A stretch of DNA of 64,000 nt from Escherichia coli. Its GTDB lineage: Bacteria; Pseudomonadota; Gammaproteobacteria; Enterobacterales; Enterobacteriaceae. The stretch lies in assembly GCF_003334405.1 (NCBI RefSeq), contig NZ_QOWM01000016.1; one strand, written 5' to 3'. The position numbers and the translations under genes are program-made. Shown here piece after piece: positions 4,900 through 60,252 of the stretch. Position 1 is the first letter of the stretch; every line of letters begins with the position of its first letter. The notes under the pieces are model-generated. The model saw nothing but the letters and a program-made list of their open reading frames with translations. It was not told the DNA's origin and ran no database searches.

Positions 4900-5930
4900 T
4901 TCGCCATGCCGATGCCGACGATGTTAGCGGCGACAATAATCACCACACAACCGAGGCTCAACACCGTTACCGGACGGCGTCCTGCATTGTTCCACTCTTT
5001 CAGCACCAGCCCGACGATACCGCCGCACAATACATAGAAACTCATATGCAGCATCCAACTGATGTAGTCATACTGCGCCGGAATGCGGGCGTGGCCCCAG
5101 GCATAGAAAAAGAATTGCAGATACCACATCAACCCGCCCAGTGTCGAGAGTAACACATTGTGAATGATCAGCGATTTTGCCAGCGAGAAGTCGGCTTTTA
5201 GCGACAAATCCTTCACTTTTGCCAGACGAATAAAACAGAAACCGAGGTTAATGATCGCGCCGCCGCCCATGATGACAACATAGCTTGGCAGAGCGACATA
5301 CAGTGGATCGACGCCAAGTGCGGCAGCGGCTTCATGCATCGGTTTTGCGGCGTTCATCGCAAAGGACATCCCGGCAGAGAAAATGCCGCACATCACCGCC
5401 AGCACCAGCCCTTTTTTCAGATTGAACTCTTCGGCTTTAATGCCCATCTTGCGCTCTTTCAACTGCCCGGCGCGAGTTACAATCCCTACGCCAATCAGCG
5501 CCACCAGAACGCCGAGCAACGTCATGCGTCCGCCTTCGGTGCTAATCAACACATCGAAATTGCCGTTGATAATTGGCGTCATCAGCGTACCGACAATCAA
5601 CGTAATGCCAATGGCGATGCCAATTCCCATCGACATGCCGAGATAACGCATGGTCAGGCCGTAGTTGATATTACCGATCCCCCACATAGCGCCGAACAGA
5701 AAAACAGGCAGTAGCGTAGAGAGACTAAACGAGCTGTAATACGCCCAGAAATTCGGTAGTAACAGGGCGCTGATGGCCCACGGCAGAATAATCCACGAAA
5801 CAATCCCACCGACTGACCACATGGTTTCCCATGACCATTTTTTTACTTTTTTGAACGGAGCGTAAAAACAGGCTGCACTGGCCGCGCCGATCAAATGCCA
5901 AAATATCCCCATCGTAATCGCGTTACTCAT
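4896..5930 (-). CDS. rhaT: L-rhamnose-proton symporter
   Basis: 344-aa polytopic membrane [37 protein letters not shown]...; stop codon overlaps the rhaR stop. Confidence 0.95.
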
Positions 5931-43336: not shown

Positions 43337-44440
43337 TTATTCCCACTCTTGCAGGAAACGCTGACCGTACTGGTCGGCTACCAGCAGAGCGGCGTAAACC
43401 TGATCTGGCGTCGCGCCGCCAGGCATGTTGTGAATGGTTTCACCTTCTGCACATGCCGCTTCTGCCACAATTCGCATTTTCGCCGGGACATCTTCTTTAA
43501 TATCCAGTTGAGCGAGAGTTATTGGCAAACCTACCGCATGGCTAAGGGCAGCTACGGTTTCGATTTCCTCCACCGGCGCATTTTCCAGAACCAGCTGCGT
43601 CAGCGTACCGAATGCCACTTTTTCACCGTGATAATAGTGATGCGCGTCCGGGATAGCGGTCAGGCCGTTATGCACTGCGTGCGCCGCAGCCAGACCACCA
43701 CTTTCAAAACCAACACTGCTCAAATAGGTGTTCGCTTCAATCACGCGCTCCAGCGCCGGAGTCACTACATGCTGTTCGGCAGCAAGCATCGCTTTTTCGC
43801 CTTCTTCCAGCAGGGTGTTGTAGCACAGTTCAGCCAGTGCCAGCGCAGCCTGGGTGCACTTGCCGCCCGCCATGGTGGTCGCGCCGCTACGAGAGCAGGC
43901 ACGCGCTTCAAACCAGGTTGCCAGCGCATCGCCGATACCCGCCGCTAACAGACGTGCAGGTGCGCCAGCGACGATTTTGGTGTCGACAATGACCATATTC
44001 GGGTTATTTGGCAACAGCAGATAGCGGTCAAACTCACCCTCATCGGTGTAGATAACAGACAATGCGCTGCACGGTGCATCGGTAGAGGCGATAGTCGGTG
44101 CGATCGCTACCGGAACACCCATGAAATGTGCCAGTGCTTTGGCAGTATCGAGGGTTTTTCCGCCACCGATACCGAGAATTGCGCCACACTGCGCAGTCTC
44201 CGCGATGCCACGCAGACGGTCGATCTCATTTTGCGAACATTCACCGCCAAACGGCGCAATTTCTACTACCAGTCCAGCATCTTTAAAGCTTTTCTCGACA
44301 GTGGATTGAGCAAAACCTAAAACAAATTTGTCACCCACCACTAACCAGCGTTCTGCCAGCGGCTTCAGGTATTCGCCCAGACGATTAATCACATCAGCGC
44401 CCTGGATGTATTTACCCGGTGATTGAATAATGCGGTCCAT
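43337..44440 (-). CDS. gldA: glycerol dehydrogenase
   Basis: Track ORF 43337..44479 trimmed to [39 protein letters not shown] (367 aa). Confidence 0.93.
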
Positions 44441-55851: not shown

Positions 55852-58503
55852 TTAGCCGGTATTACGCATACCTGCCGCAATCCCGGCAATAGTGACCATT
55901 AACGCTTGTTCGACGCGAGGATCCGGTTCCTGGCCTTCTTTTTCTGCCTGGCGGGAGCGGTGCAGCAACTCGGCCTGCAATACGTTCAGCGGGTCGGTGT
56001 AAATATTCCGTAGCTGAATAGACTCTGCAATCCACGGCAGATCGGCCATCAGATGGGAATCGTTGGCAATCGCCAGCACCACTTTGATGTCTTCTTCTTG
56101 CAGGTTGCGTAACTCTTTACCTAACGGCCACAGTGCTTTGTCTACCAGGCGTTGGTCATAGTATTCCGCCAGCCACAGGTCTGCTTTGGCGAAGACCATC
56201 TCCAGCATGCCGAGACGCGTCGAGAAGAATGGCCAATCGCGGCACATAGCCTCCAGCTCGCTCTGTTTGCCGTCTTCGACCACTTTTTGCAGCGCCGTAC
56301 CTGCACCCAGCCAGGCGGGGAGCATCAGACGGTTTTGCGTCCAGGCGAAGATCCACGGAATGGCGCGTAGTGACTCGACGCCGCCGGTTGGGCGACGTTT
56401 CGCCGGACGTGAACCCAACGGCAGTTTGCCCAGTTCTTGTTCCGGCGTAGCGGAGCGGAAGTAAGGCACAAAATCTTTGTTTTCACGTACGTAGCCGCGG
56501 TAGACATCGCAGGAGATGACTGACAGTTCATCCATAATGCGACGCCAGCTCTCTTTCGGCTCCGGCGGTGGCAGCAGGTTGGCTTCCAGAATCGCCCCGG
56601 TATAAAGCGACAGGCTGCTGACGGTGATTTCTGGCAGACCATATTTAAAGCGGATCATCTCGCCCTGTTCGGTTACGCGCAGGCCGCCTTTCAGGCTTCC
56701 TGGCGGTTGTGACAGCAGCGCCGCATGAGCAGGTGCGCCGCCGCGACCAATGGAACCGCCGCGACCGTGGAACAACGTCAGCTCAATACCCGCTTTTTCG
56801 CAGGTTTTGATTAATGCATCCTGTGCCTGATATTGCGCCCAGGAAGCTGCCATCACTCCCGCATCTTTTGCTGAGTCGGAATAGCCAATCATCACCATCT
56901 GTTTGCCCTGAATCAGGCCACGATACCAGTCAATATTGAGCAGCTGGGTCATGACATCGTTGGCGTTGTTCAGATCATCGAGGGTTTCAAACAGCGGAGC
57001 AACCGGCATCGCAAACCCGATACCCGCTTCTTTCAGCAGCAGGTGGACAGCCAGTACGTCGGACGGCGTTTTCGCCATCGAGATCACGTAGGCGGCAATG
57101 GAGCCTTGCGGTGCTTCGGCAATCACCTGGCAGGTATCGAGCACTTCGCGCGTTTCGGCGCTTGGTTGCCAGTTGCGCGGCAGAAGCGGACGTTTGGAGT
57201 TCAGTTCGCGGATCAGGAACGCCTGTTTGTCGGCCTCTGACCAGCTTTCGTAGTCGCCGATACCGAGGTAGCGGGTCAGCTCGCCCAGCGCTTCGGTATG
57301 ACGCGTGCTCTCCTGACGGATATCAATACGGACCAGCGGTACGCCGAAACATTTCACGCGGCGCAGGGTGTCGAGCAGATCGCCGTTGGCGATAATACCC
57401 ATGCCACACGCCTGAAGTGACTGGTAGCAAGCGTAGAGCGGTTCCCACAGTTCTTCGTTTTGTGTCAGCAGGCCTTCTGGTTTTGGCAGTTCTTCGCCTT
57501 TCAGGCGCGCTTCCAGCCATGCCTGTGTCGCCATCAGGCGAGAACGCAGGTTTTTCATCAGATAGCGATACGGTTCTGCGGCACCTTCTTCGCCAACCAG
57601 CGCCAGCAGTTCAGGGGTCGCTTCAACCATCGACAGTTCAGAAACCAGCACCTGAATATCTTTCAGGAACAAATCGGTGGCTTTCCAGCGGCTGAGTAGC
57701 AGGACGTGGCGGGTGATATCGGCAGTGACGTTCGGGTTGCCGTCGCGGTCGCCGCCCATCCACGAAGTAAAACGGACCGGAACAAATTCGACGGGCAGTT
57801 TGTAGCCGAGGTTCTCTTCCAGTTGTTCGTTCAGTTCGCGCAGGTAATTTGGTACGCCTTGCCACAGGCTGTTTTCCACTACGGCAAAGCCCCATTTGGC
57901 TTCATCTACCGGGCTTGGACGCAGCTTACGGATTTCATCGGTATGCCATGACTGGGCGATCAACTGGCGCAGGCGACGCATCAGCTGGTTGTGTTCGTAG
58001 TCAGCGATATCTTTGTTATCGAGCTGTTTTAAACAGGCGTTCACTTCCACCATTTTGTGGATCAGTGTACGACGGGTAATTTCGGTTGGGTGAGCCGTGA
58101 GGACCAGTTCCAGCGACAGCGATTCCACTGCTTTTTTGATGGTGTCTTCGCTCAGTTCCGGCTGGTTTTTCAGTTTACGCAGGGTGCGGGCGATCACTTC
58201 CGGGTTGCTGGCAGCTTCGCCTTTCGGCGAAATGCTGTGGTATTGCTCGGCGGTGTTGGCCAGGTTCAGGAACTGACTAAACGCACGCGCAACGGGCAGC
58301 AGCTCGTCGTTCGACAAATTTTGTAAGGTGGTGAGCAACTCCTGGCGGTTAGCATCATTGCCAGCGCGTGAAGATTTCGACAACTTACGGATAGTTTCTA
58401 CGCGTTCAAGAATGTGTTCTCCCAACGCATCCTTGATGGTTTCTCCCAGCACTTTGCCGAGCATACTGACATTACTACGCAATGCGGAATATTGTTCGTT
58501 CAT
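55852..58503 (-). CDS. ppc: phosphoenolpyruvate carboxylase
   Basis: 883-aa [44 protein letters not shown]..., ending in the conserved C-terminal ...MRNTG. Confidence 0.96.
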
Positions 58504-58751
58504 ATTACCCCAGACACCCCATCTTATCGTTTGATAGCCCTGTATCCTTCACGTCGCATTGGCGCGAATATGCTCGGGCTTTGCTTTTCGTCGTCTTTTA
58601 TAAAGCCACGTAAAAGCGGTGACGTCAAATGCTGCGAAATCGCTTCAGCAAACGAATAAATAGCAGGAATTTACGTCATTAAATTCACGACGCTTTAAAT
58701 AAGCGTAACTTATGGAAATGTTAAAAAATCGCCCCAAGTAACACCAAAGGT

Positions 58752-59100
58752 GTAGGTCGGATAAGATGCGCAAGTATCGCATCCGACATTATTGCGGCAC
58801 TGGAGTTTGGCAACAGTGCCGGATGCGGCGCGAGCGCCTTATCCGGCCTACAGTTGGGCATCGTTTGAGTCACTGTAGGTCGGATAAGATGCGCAAGTAT
58901 CGCATCCGACATTATTGCGGCACTGGAGTTTGGCAACAGTGCCGGATGCGGCGCGAGCGCCTTATCCGGCCTACAGTTGGGCATCGTTTGAGTCACTGTA
59001 GGTCGGATAAGATGCGCAAGTATCGCATCCGACATTATTGCGGCACTGGAGTTTGGCAACAGCGCCGGATGCGGCGCGAGCGCCTTATCCGGCCTACGTT
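58752..59100. repeat. Three-copy tandem BIME (123-bp unit, each with two REP palindromes plus a linker hairpin) between ppc promoter region and argE 3' end
   Basis: Unit starts at 58752, 58875 and 58998 (period exactly 123 bp); copies identical except one substitution in copy 3 (C at 59063 versus T) and truncation of the last linker; produces the artefactual ORFs 58721..59113 and 58766..59104. Confidence 0.9.
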
Positions 59101-60252
59101 TTAATGCCAGCAAAAATGGTGAATTACCTGGGTTATCAGTTCGCGGGTGGGCTTGATAAACCGTGTTTCCAGATATTCATCAGGTTGATGAGCCTGATTA
59201 ATTGAGCCAGGCCCCAACACCAGCGTCGGGCATAACGTTTGAATAAACGGCGCTTCGGTACAGTAGTTCACCACTTCGGTTTTTGCTCCGAGCAATTTCT
59301 CAACCACTTCAACCAGTTGATGATTCGGTGGGCATTCATAGCCAGGGATCGGCGGATGCAGCTCGTCGACCGTCAGACGACCCGGCCAGCGTTCGCTCAC
59401 CGGAGCCAATGCATCGTTGAGCAAACCATTAAGTTCATTGAGTGTCATGCCAGGCAGCGGACGAATATCCATATGCAACTCACAGCAAGCGCAAATACGG
59501 TTAGAAGCGTCGCCACCGTGAATATGCCCGAGGTTGAGCGTAGGGTATGGCACGGTAAACGCTTCGTAGTGATAACGTTCTTTCAGGTTATCGCGCAATT
59601 GCAAAATATGCCCGATGGCGTCGTGCATTAGTTCGATAGCGTTAACTCCGCGTGCTGGATCGCTGGAGTGCCCCGACTGGCCCTGAATACGGATGGCGTT
59701 AGAGATATGACCTTTATGTGCGCGTACCGGTTGTAGTGACGTCGGTTCGCCAATGATGGCGCAATCCGGGCGCAGGGCGGTAGTTTCGGCAAAATAACGC
59801 GCTCCGGCCATACTGGTTTCTTCATCAGCAGTCGCCAGAATGTAGAGCGGTTTTTTCAGTTTCGTGACGTCGACATCGCGTAGCGCATCAAGGATAAACG
59901 CAAAAAAGCCTTTCATGTCGGCGGTGCCTAAGCCGTAAAGCTTGCCGTCATGCTCCGTCAGTGTAAACGGATCGCGCGTCCAGCGACCGTCATCAAATGG
60001 CACCGTATCGGTATGCCCCGCCAGCAACAAGCCGCCAGCCCCCTGTCCGATACTTGCCAGCATATTGAATTTGTTGCGAGTTCCTGGAACAGGCTGCACT
60101 TCCACATTGAAGCCCAAATCTTTAAACCAGTCCGCCAGCAGAGTGATTAAATCTGCATTGCTTTGATCGAGTGCCTCTTCCGTGGCGCTTATTGAAGGTG
60201 TGGCAATCAGAGCGCGGTAAATCTCGATAAATGGCGGTAATTTGTTTTTCAT
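59101..60252 (-). CDS. argE: acetylornithine deacetylase
   Basis: Track ORF 59101..60291 trimmed to [35 protein letters not shown] (383 aa); M20 peptidase family. Confidence 0.93.

Follow-up and report, generated by a model that had tools for sequence, protein, structure and literature searches.

The window, the 64-kb stretch of DNA analysed here, is colinear with E. coli K-12 MG1655, and both carry a three-unit array at the same site in the spacer between argE and ppc. On the transcribed strand the array lies downstream of argE and upstream of ppc, in the following setting:

55852-58503, minus strand: ppc, phosphoenolpyruvate carboxylase (open reading frame list and RefSeq annotation of the colinear K-12 locus).
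58504-58750, minus strand: the 247-nt part of the spacer from the array to the ppc ATG, alignable in all Escherichia alleles.
58751-59097, minus strand: the whole array, 2.8 tandem 123-bp BIME units in the argE 3' UTR, upstream of the ppc promoter region (Tandem Repeats Finder, repeat finder, fold).
59101-60252, minus strand: argE, acetylornithine deacetylase, with its stop codon at 59101-59103 (RefSeq annotation of the colinear K-12 locus).

Tandem Repeats Finder reports a single array at 58751-59097, with a period of 123, 2.8 copies, 99% matches, no indels and a score of 687, and this is the sole tandem repeat in the window that scores at least 80. The repeat finder delimits copies at 58751-58873, 58874-58996 (100% identical) and 58997-59119 (85%), the last being so low because its final 22 bases are unique flank. 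Base-by-base comparison revealed that unit 1 equals unit 2 exactly and that unit 3 deviates at 59063 alone, where it carries C, up to the end of the repeat at 59097, with 3 nt between it and the argE stop codon. Chance cannot account for an exact duplication of 123 bp. These results confirm what the sequence-only reading had proposed, namely a tandem BIME array between ppc and argE (supported by both repeat searches and the flanking genes) with two identical copies and a third that bears C at 59063 and ends in a short tail at the argE stop; the unit starts that it gave (58752, 58875 and 58998) have the right period and are offset from the longest register by one base to the right, which is immaterial. 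The ppc promoter and leader presumably lie within 58504-58750, and a consensus promoter scan gave no minus-strand site and so did not place the promoter. Two hexamers picked out by eye, TTGACG (58628-58623) and TATAAA (58602-58597), are spaced 20 nt apart, and we make no promoter claim for them.

In the sense of argE and ppc transcription, every unit runs from a Y-type REP through a linker of 30 nt to a Z2-like REP and then a spacer of 23 nt, and the parts succeed one another along the array as follows:

59064-59097, minus strand: Y-type REP of unit 3, the first hairpin past argE (Rfam naRNA4 alignment; -21.1 kcal/mol).
59034-59063, minus strand: head-to-head linker of unit 3 (30 nt), bearing the C at 59063 (sequence comparison, fold).
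58998-59033, minus strand: Z2-like REP of unit 3, with T at 59021 (sequence comparison, naRNA4 alignment).
58975-58997, minus strand: tail-to-tail spacer between units 2 and 3 (23 nt), with A at 58975 (sequence comparison).
58941-58974, minus strand: Y-type REP of unit 2 (naRNA4 alignment, fold).
58911-58940, minus strand: head-to-head linker of unit 2, with the stem GGCACTG...CAGTGCC (fold).
58875-58910, minus strand: Z2-like REP of unit 2, with A at 58877 (sequence comparison).
58852-58874, minus strand: tail-to-tail spacer between units 1 and 2 (direct sequence reading).
58818-58851, minus strand: Y-type REP of unit 1 (naRNA4 alignment, fold).
58788-58817, minus strand: head-to-head linker of unit 1 (fold).
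58752-58787, minus strand: Z2-like REP of unit 1, the last hairpin ahead of the ppc upstream region (naRNA4 alignment, fold).

The six REPs have the length of the imperfect palindromes of 30-40 nt by which REPs are recognized, the Y type measuring 34 nt (about -21 kcal/mol) and the Z2-like type 36 nt (about -13 kcal/mol), and all six bear GTAG/CTAC at the foot of the palindrome, a conserved GTAG tetranucleotide in this position being part of the REP definition (PMC3333891). The Z2-like REP of K-12 unit 2 carries GTCG, not GTAG. In unit 3, the GTAG of the Y REP (59097-59094) begins 3 nt past the argE stop and the first paired base (59093) lies 8 nt past it, well inside the 15 nt downstream of a stop codon that delimit stop-proximal REPs. 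The linker stem GGCACTG...CAGTGCC shares four bases with the 3' arm of the Y REP, and the C at 59063 turns one A-U pair of this stem into G.U on the RNA strand (-13.0 versus -13.4 kcal/mol). Folded as minus-strand RNA, the whole array reaches -184.8 kcal/mol (z = -10.3 versus shuffles). The two REP palindromes and the linker hairpin that had been read by eye in each unit are thus borne out by the naRNA4 alignment and the hairpin folds.

The Rfam naRNA4/REP325 model fits each unit end to end on the minus strand (best 53.3 bits, E = 1e-8), with the Y and Z2 hairpins in model order, no indels in the hairpins and one 17-nt insertion in the linker; the scores (53.3, 53.3 and 50.7 bits) fall below the gathering threshold of 59.5 for RF02564, and the units do not qualify as members of that family. 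As in BIME-2 elements (definitions in PMC3333891), y and z2-type REPs alternate in orientation, the Z2-like REP being a sequence variant, and tandem copies that are alike at one locus vary in number between strains (2.8 copies in the window; 5,426 genomes surveyed). Unlike in BIME-2, the two REPs of a head-to-head pair are not joined by the short S motif, their linker measuring 30 nt, against 13 nt in the naRNA4 model. The array is not a BIME-1, that is, a single z1 + y pair whose linker L holds an IHF site, as its copies are in tandem and its second REP has the length of Z2. We conclude that the element is BIME-2-like with an unusually long head-to-head linker; a strict motif grammar would file it as an atypical BIME, a residual class without positive definition that suits y and z2-like REPs joined by a long linker of neither S nor IHF type. 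IHF binding belongs to BIME-1 elements with the long L linker, and a search for the IHF consensus WATCAANNNNTTR on both strands of 58740-59110, allowing one mismatch, gave no hit; the suggestion that IHF may bind here is unsupported for these two reasons, the array being a y/z2-like tandem.

The unit can also pair along its whole length: in the minimum-energy fold (-53.9 kcal/mol) and in the RNAalifold consensus, Y is paired with Z2 in one long hairpin, as in REPINs (RAYT/TnpA-REP), which likewise comprise two inverted REPs of about 100 nt in total with GTAG/CTAC ends. Unlike the dispersed REPINs, the argE-ppc doublet is amplified in tandem at one locus, and its linker is locus-specific, the three copies of that linker in K-12 being the three units at this locus only; the window contains no RAYT gene. 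Among 17 distinct units from five Escherichia lineages, standard pairs make up 97.5% of pair cells; in the same set, covariation measures for the three hairpins equalled those of shuffled controls, and one pair alone had changed on both sides. What backs the hairpin structure is sequence conservation and nothing further, a pattern that homogenisation alone could yield. RNAalifold also flagged one possibly compensatory pair (columns 18/82) favouring the long Y:Z2 hairpin, which we do not count because it is based on three homogenised units of a single array.

Two long open reading frames run over the array:

58721-59113, minus strand: 130-aa ORF, a by-product of the repeat (open reading frame list).
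58766-59104, plus strand: 112-aa ORF, a by-product of the repeat (open reading frame list).

Both exist because 123 is 3 x 41 and the unit has one stop-free frame per strand, and the earlier view that the long ORFs are artefacts of repetition is sustained by this periodicity, by the stop-free frames and by the lack of an NCBIfam match. PGAP lists the 130-aa ORF in a few RefSeq genomes as the hypothetical protein WP_000880425.1, but the chance that either frame encodes a genuine repeat protein is close to nil: the frames are due solely to the period and its one stop-free frame per strand, NCBIfam has no match to the array-spanning ORFs, their length would shift with each change in copy number, the ORF is missing from one-unit strains, the 130-aa frame begins at TTG and overlaps the argE stop codon, and the array DNA carries no gene annotation in most genomes. 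We rejected a protein-coding reading of both frames on the grounds of repeat periodicity and the absent NCBIfam match, and for annotation this means that the 130-aa "hypothetical protein" of PGAP is a repeat by-product that should not be propagated. The translations of the array ORFs, used as haplotype fingerprints, had no exact match in the protein collection, but the K-12 positive controls were likewise unmatched.

Copy number and junctions were counted in 5,426 complete E. coli genomes, among which the site ranges from no full unit (34%-44% of genomes) to at least seven units. At least two units are present in 1,330 genomes (24.5%; median 2 junctions, maximum 6), three being the commonest state in this group, and the locus-specific linker occurs 5,596 times in 3,012 of the 5,426 genomes, with a maximum of 9 per genome. 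The argE-ppc spacer falls into classes with three, two or one unit, a single REP or an unrelated insert; a mouse-gut strain of K-12 serotype holds four units, B2 strains such as Nissle have a lone REP whose distance from the argE stop codon exceeds 15 nt, and relatives identical to the window over 25 kb have three units in some cases and one in others. The arrays of PD7 and R2 are the exact crossover product predicted between K-12 units 2 and 3. Copy number therefore does vary between strains, as the sequence-only reading had expected, and the three-unit state of the window is no assembly artefact, the finished K-12 reference also having three. What calls for a check at read level is whether the units really are identical in sequence, and not how many there are.

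The exactness of the repeat, which had been stressed from the letters alone, is true of the window and is not a property of the element, since the units differ from one another at 1-3 positions in the K-12 reference and in every other three-unit genome examined. Compared with K-12, the window has A instead of C at 58877 (and hence an intact GTAG where K-12 has GTCG), A instead of G at 58975, and T at 59021, where K-12 and all close relatives have C. Three of the five private base changes of the window fall inside the array, all three raise the likeness of the units, and none of the 5,426 complete E. coli genomes has the resulting, fully homogenised haplotype. Units 1 and 2 are identical either because sequence was exchanged between units very recently or because the source assembly has a consensus error here. 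That this identity and the T at 59021 are such errors, the true array having the K-12 haplotype, is a serious possibility to which we give somewhat less than even odds. Short-read graph construction or polishing would swap minority bases in near-identical units for the majority base except near unique flanks, and all three array differences from K-12 and from ETEC1706, the closest relative found, do replace a unit-private base by the base of the other units. Three of the five private changes are concentrated in 347 of 64,000 bases (binomial P ~9e-6 for three of the eight differences from ETEC1706), and the haplotype that they produce is the one missing from the complete genomes. The surviving private base at 59063 lies 35 nt from the unique flank and the erased one at 59021 lies 77 nt from it, which by our own reckoning fits an anchoring limit near the common k-mer size of 77, and a natural origin from the K-12 haplotype would, as reasoned from the haplotypes, require at least two exchange events. 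Against this, the four variable positions are combined in mosaic fashion in natural arrays (in an early sample of five other strains no two haplotypes agreed, and more were found later), so that an unseen combination is unsurprising; the combination of window unit 3 (T25 + C67) occurs naturally in R2, 2013C-4991, PD7 and unit 1 of NCTC9080, a junction identical to that of the window is present in 96 genomes, and 150-nt reads cover more than one variable site and should be placed correctly. A single gene-conversion tract from the K-12 haplotype was rejected as the origin of the window array, because a template out of register by one unit would also give C at 59000, where the window has A.

The argE-ppc site is occupied by the same unit as in E. 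coli in three further lineages, E. whittamii (4.8 units), E. albertii (2 units) and Escherichia sp. E1V33 (1.8 units). The E. albertii units are 95% alike mutually and ~85% identical to the E. coli units, and in E. whittamii the inner units are 98% alike and the edge unit is 97% identical to the edge unit of K-12. These comparisons show that the array units of Escherichia evolve in concert: misaligned exchange between units readily shifts their number among strains, and this exchange also keeps the units of one array alike. No such array occurs in the argE-ppc spacer of the other genera, where the whole spacer has a median of 271 nt, close in size to the 247 nt between array and ppc in the window. 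Among 99 other Enterobacteriaceae, at least 23 have a hairpin followed by a T-run after argE; in 19 of these it begins no more than 30 nt past the stop codon. The Escherichia array resembles this intrinsic argE terminator in occupying the same place, past the argE stop and before the ppc upstream region, and in forming a stable GC-rich hairpin; unlike an intrinsic terminator, it has no hairpin with a T-run after it, and a search for GC-rich hairpins with T-runs gave none in 58350-59350 and, in a second scan, none in the whole argE-ppc spacer.

The closest known counterpart is the REP325/naRNA1-6 array between yjdM and yjdN of K-12 (RF02564). In both, tandem units run Y then Z2 when read along the upstream gene, the two flanking genes point the same way, the array starts near the upstream stop codon and the units within one array are near-identical. 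Unlike REP325, with 6 units, 12 hairpins and a 13-nt head-to-head linker, the argE-ppc array has 3 units, 6 hairpins and a 30-nt linker, and its Z2-like REP has a GTCGGATG...CATCCGAC stem, with an A.C mismatch in the inner stem of most E. coli units. In a 2026 preprint, REP325 is described as 12 alternating Z2/Y hairpins between tandem genes that stabilise the upstream mRNA and attenuate read-through with partial Rho dependence (bioRxiv 10.64898/2026.03.23.713779), and its deletion alters the expression of both adjacent genes (bioRxiv 10.64898/2026.03.23.713779). We put at roughly 0.75 the probability that the site is a chromosomal BIME of the E. coli argE-ppc spacer that undergoes unit exchange and, by analogy with REP325, has a role at the RNA level. 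On that analogy, its hairpins in the argE 3' UTR would most likely shield the argE mRNA and lessen read-through in the direction of ppc. Since argE transcripts must enter the array, the six stable hairpins probably act as those of REP325 do: they could block 3'-to-5' exonucleases and thereby stabilise the upstream argE mRNA, and they could attenuate transcription in a leaky, partly Rho-dependent manner, so that less of it reaches the ppc promoter region. Fragments of REP325 with 2-4 hairpins showed no Rho dependence (bioRxiv 10.64898/2026.03.23.713779), so the six-hairpin array may attenuate weakly. A REP that lies no more than 15 nt past a stop codon stalls ribosomes and lowers upstream translation (Liang, Rudd and Deutscher 2015, as summarised in PMC12306157 and PMC7967276), and the position of the first REP, 3 nt past the argE stop with its stem at 8 nt, means that the first hairpin may reduce ArgE synthesis by hindering the terminating ribosome. 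The RNA-seq table in the supplement of the preprint lists a baseMean of 21,925 for ppc and 959 for argE, a ~23-fold ratio that is not length-normalised (bioRxiv 10.64898/2026.03.23.713779), and argE read-through can therefore add little ppc mRNA under those conditions. Many genomes have no full unit, and copy number varies even between very close relatives; whatever effect array length has is therefore dispensable.

The same variability in presence, absence and copy number among close relatives, with no visible constraint, is what one would expect if the array had no function at argE-ppc and were the remnant of a selfish REPIN, spread by a REP-associated transposase and drifting neutrally in length in a permissive spacer. 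Its absence from other genera, the lack of a covariation signal in the hairpins and the REPIN-like long Y:Z2 hairpin open to each unit also fit this explanation, as does the ability of TnpA-REP to cleave and recombine BIME DNA in vitro, which the authors of that work tie to copy-number variation (PMC3333891). We nevertheless consider it rather unlikely. The unit was in place before the divergence of E. albertii, E. whittamii and E. coli and has stayed there, a long time for neutral DNA to persist when genomes are compact; in many relatives a terminator occupies the position of the array; and deletion of the comparable REP325 array changes the expression of both neighbours. A selfish origin and a local RNA effect are compatible and may both hold.

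Action at the DNA level, as a site of gyrase cleavage or binding or through cruciforms with HU and REP-derived RNA that aid chromosome organisation, strikes us as unlikely. BIME-2 elements are reported as gyrase targets (Espeli and Boccard 1997, as cited in PMC4550694), DNA condensation with HU has been proposed for REP325 and naRNA4 (PMC4550694), and the unit shares the naRNA4 architecture; yet its naRNA4 match stays under the Rfam gathering score (53.3 versus 59.5), many E. coli lack the array, and the 2026 re-examination of REP325 reports that REP325 and its RNAs left nucleoid volume unaffected and that contacts between REPs were not observed (bioRxiv 10.64898/2026.03.23.713779). The array could also be the body of a plus-strand non-coding RNA that starts in the ppc upstream region, divergent from ppc, and runs towards the 3' end of argE. 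This is improbable as well, given that the consensus scan gave no promoter-like site in or beside the array, that reads within near-identical repeats are hard to place, and that the naRNA4 match is far weaker on the plus strand (32 bits, versus 53 on the minus strand); the source of the idea proposes no function for such an RNA.

Within the preferred reading of a 3'-UTR hairpin array, a bolder version holds that unit number is a heritable quantitative setting, the array having replaced the plain argE terminator of other genera and been kept by concerted evolution throughout the history of the genus Escherichia; we regard this as speculative and unlikely. If it were true, strains with 0, 1, 3 and 5 or more units would differ measurably in how stable argE mRNA is, in how much ArgE is made and in how well the ppc promoter is shielded from arginine-regulated transcription, and changes in unit number, which are seen within the K-12 lineage, would be frequent enough for a contingency-type regulatory switch.

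REP/BIME biology has been under study for 40 years, and the element itself is already known, being present in the K-12 reference genome, with the ppc-argE REPs named in the literature; our literature search found no paper joining "bacterial interspersed mosaic" with argE. Because near relatives disagree in copy number and the homogenised version of the window is found nowhere else, the site makes a handy assembly-quality sentinel for collapse or over-polishing of short tandem repeats. Natural alleles with anything from no full unit to at least seven also occur in otherwise near-identical backgrounds; together with the orthologous arrays of sister species, they provide a clean system for testing the terminator-plus-stabiliser model recently put forward for REP325.

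Tandem Repeats Finder resolved 58751-59097 as one array (period 123, 2.8 copies, 99% matches, no indels), with no other tandem repeat of the 64-kb window reaching a score of 80, and repeat comparison bore out the three-copy, 123-bp BIME that the sequence-only reading had placed between ppc and argE. On the transcribed strand the order is argE, 3 nt, array, 247 nt and ppc, with units numbered here by rising coordinate:

Features of the argE-ppc spacer
58503 to 55852, minus strand: ppc
58751-58873: unit 1, 100% identical to unit 2
58874-58996: unit 2, 100% identical to unit 1
up to 59097, where the repeat match stops: unit 3, differing from units 1 and 2 by C at 59063
59103-59101, minus strand: TAA stop codon of argE

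Unit comparison agreed with the earlier description of two identical copies and a third with C at 59063 and a shortened tail by the argE stop; the array had also been placed correctly, its unit starts being shifted rightward from the longest register by a single base, which makes no difference. Along the direction of argE transcription the unit divides into four parts:

Parts of the 123-bp unit
Part 1, 34 nt: Y-type REP, GTAGGCCGGATAAGGCGCTCGCGCCGCATCCGGC, hairpin of -21 kcal/mol
Part 2, 30 nt: linker
Part 3, 36 nt with CTAC at its end: Z2-like REP, hairpin of -13 kcal/mol
Part 4, 23 nt: tail-to-tail spacer, AGTTGGGCATCGTTTGAG

Under the BIME class definitions summarised in PMC3333891, the array has the hallmarks of BIME-2 (y and z2-type REPs, tandem copies in strain-variable number, and well-conserved copies at one locus), but it has no short S linker and therefore falls strictly into the residual 'atypical BIME' class. 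BIME-1 was ruled out, the array having neither an L linker nor an IHF site and not being single-copy; the suggested IHF binding found no consensus match within the array, even with one mismatch allowed. The Rfam model naRNA4, which describes one unit of REP325, the array between yjdM and yjdN of K-12, aligns full length to every unit on the minus strand (53.3 bits, E about 1e-8) with a 17-nt linker insertion as the sole indel, although this similarity scores below the gathering threshold of 59.5 bits. REP325 likewise consists of tandem Y/Z2 units and lies between co-directional genes. The array is thus an already known kind of element in an already known place.

The linker hairpin noted from the sequence, GGCACTG...CAGTGCC, is present in the unit, and four bases of its stem also belong to the 3' arm of the Y REP, which keeps the two hairpins from both forming fully; C at 59063, a G in the RNA, leaves this stem with G.U in place of an A-U pair (-13.0 versus -13.4 kcal/mol). 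The array is predicted to form very stable hairpins: minus-strand RNA of the whole array folds at -184.8 kcal/mol (z = -10.3 against shuffles), and in alternative folds adjacent REPs pair together, and the entire unit can become a single long Y:Z2 hairpin (-53.9 kcal/mol). Among 17 distinct Escherichia units the hairpins are 97.5% paired with nearly all pairs invariant and covariation equal to that of shuffled controls; the structure is therefore backed by conservation only. No T-run follows any array hairpin, which ruled out an intrinsic terminator, and a consensus scan found no promoter-like site on the minus strand. The unit has one stop-free frame per strand and 123 equals 3 x 41, hence ORFs of 130 and 112 aa, neither with an NCBIfam match; the earlier view of these long ORFs as artefacts of repetition was upheld. 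PGAP annotates the 130-aa ORF as the hypothetical protein WP_000880425.1 in a few genomes (P13-6, 5060-5452; strain 300709), the same DNA being left unannotated in K-12, ETEC1706 and most others.

Five allele classes occupy the argE-ppc site in E. coli:

Allele classes and example strains
Three units: K-12
Two units: NCTC9080
One unit: E24377A, O157:H7, O104:H4, BL21(DE3)
Single Z2-like REP plus remnant: Nissle and other B2 strains
Unrelated 161-bp insert with a CCCTCTCCCC/GGGGCGAGGGG palindrome: MS1050 class

The 161-bp insert replaces the BIME in about 5% of sampled E. coli and also contains ATTTGGGCATCATTTGAG, similar to the tail-to-tail spacer of the array. A probe for the inter-unit junction matched 1,330 of 5,426 genomes (24.5%), with 2,552 junctions in total, a median of 2 per genome and a maximum of 6, so that some arrays have seven units; in an even sample of 60 junction-bearing genomes, 8 had two units, 50 three and 2 four. 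A probe for the head-to-head linker found 5,596 copies in 3,012 genomes (maximum 9 per genome), and the two counts agree (5,596 - 3,012 = 2,584 versus 2,552). K-12 has exactly three linker copies, which restricts this unit type to the argE-ppc locus. By coverage of a longer query at least one unit is present in 3,569 genomes, and 34% to 44% of genomes thus have no full unit. The strain-variable copy number proposed earlier ranges from no full unit to at least seven. Over its first 25 kb the window matches four natural phylogroup-A strains at 100% identity; among strains matching there, P13-6 and P377 have three units and FJ_Ec_21 and YZ_2_2 one, a 2:2 split caused either by rapid change in nature or by collapsed repeats in some of the assemblies.

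Array haplotypes proved to be mosaics of four variable unit positions (4, 25, 67 and 102):

Array haplotypes
K-12: [ref][C4,G102][C25,C67]
M217: [ref][C25,C67,G102][C25,C67]
Mouse-gut strain of K-12 serotype: four units, as in K-12 but with the last unit type present twice
PD7 and R2: two units, the second C4,T25,C67
Window: [ref][ref][C67]

The second unit of PD7 and R2 is exactly what a crossover joining K-12 units 2 and 3 would yield, and these mosaics indicate that misaligned unit exchange is common in nature and the argE-ppc site a hot spot for it. The window haplotype is one more exchange mosaic, requiring at least two events from that of K-12.

The window is colinear with K-12 MG1655 (12 substitutions and no gaps in 64 kb), and ETEC1706, the closest whole-window relative found, differs at eight positions, three of them inside the array (binomial P about 9e-6). 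These three, identical in every comparison, are 58877 (A in the window, C elsewhere), 58975 (A, elsewhere G) and 59021 (T, elsewhere C), and each replaces a base private to a single unit with that of the other units. Against six relatives the window has five private alleles, three within the 347-bp array; the only ones outside it are the C to T substitutions at 32868 and 43717. Over 39001-64000 bit scores imply about four mismatches in the best-matching of the 5,426 genomes, of which presumably one, at 43717, lies outside the array. None of these 5,426 complete E. coli assemblies contains the window's version of the array: the K-12 haplotype comes nearest (3 mismatches in 367), and a diagnostic 151-nt stretch is matched at best with one mismatch. 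Of the exact three-copy array described earlier, the copy number stands and is not an artefact, because the K-12 reference and roughly a thousand other genomes have three units; the exactness is peculiar to this assembly and not a property of the element. Given such natural mosaics, we favour a fresh natural exchange as the source of the perfect identity of units 1 and 2, at a probability of roughly 60%; that the assembly itself made the two units identical, in a version seen in none of the other genomes, is a somewhat less probable but serious alternative.

Outside E. coli, we recovered the locus from 120 species-representative genomes with a degenerate pattern for the ppc start. argE lies directly upstream of ppc in 104 of them, with a median spacer of 271 nt, close to the 247 nt between the E. 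coli array and ppc.

The argE-ppc site in other Escherichia (123-bp units)
E. whittamii: 4.8 units, 94% alike
E. albertii: 2 units
Escherichia sp. E1V33: 1.8 units
SCPM-O-B-8794, a divergent 'E. coli': 1 unit
Escherichia sp. MOD1-EC7003: single-REP allele

Units resemble one another more within a species than across species: in E. albertii they share 95% identity among themselves and about 85% with E. coli units. The inner units of E. whittamii are 98% alike. Its edge unit, next to the stop, shares 97% identity with the K-12 edge unit and only 88-93% with its own neighbours; the Y-REP loop is CTCG, the E. coli type, in that unit and TTTA in the four inner ones. Such within-species likeness with a divergent edge is the classic signature of concerted evolution, the edges escaping homogenisation. 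The array is absent outside Escherichia, where a perfect-stem hairpin and T-run follow argE in at least 23 of 99 spacers (19 starting within 30 nt of the stop), an arrangement found in none of the Escherichia spacers. Some other genera have their own REP pairs or CCCTCTCCC-type palindromes there; the latter, some in tandem, occur in Enterobacter sp. kpr-6, Pseudenterobacter timonensis and Enterobacteriaceae bacterium 89 and are similar to the CCCTCTCCCC...GGGGCGAGGGG palindrome of the MS1050 insert.

After its stop codon the argE transcript meets the array first, the first REP beginning 3 nt past the stop. A preprint describes REP325 as stabilising the upstream yjdM mRNA and attenuating transcription into yjdN, with a partial Rho dependence seen only for the full array (bioRxiv 10.64898/2026.03.23.713779). 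REPs lying no more than 15 nt past a stop codon reportedly stall ribosomes at termination and cut protein yield (Liang et al. 2015, as cited by PMC12306157 and PMC7967276). Its likeness to REP325 and its stop-proximal REP lead us to regard the array as an element of the argE 3' UTR, which by analogy would act as a barrier to exonucleases and a leaky attenuator ahead of the ppc promoter region, and may also damp ArgE translation. A strong role is opposed by the third or more of E. coli genomes with no full unit, by the differing copy number among close relatives, and by ppc reads about 23-fold above argE reads in one data set (not length-normalised), so that read-through cannot matter much for ppc mRNA there. 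A published re-analysis of transcription start sites lists a well-expressed plus-strand start in the spacer, from which transcription would run across the REPs towards argE (PMC7967276); REPs being palindromic, the array could damp transcription arriving from either side.

The window itself starts inside another BIME (1-141), in the rhaD-rhaA spacer, numbered REP299 (EcoCyc) in a preprint, with two Y-type REPs 92 bp apart at 78% identity; the first 123 bases of the window match K-12 at two offsets. P377 has an IS621 (IS110-like) insertion of about 1.28 kb between gldA and yijF, corresponding to window 43265/43266, which is absent from the window and the other relatives.
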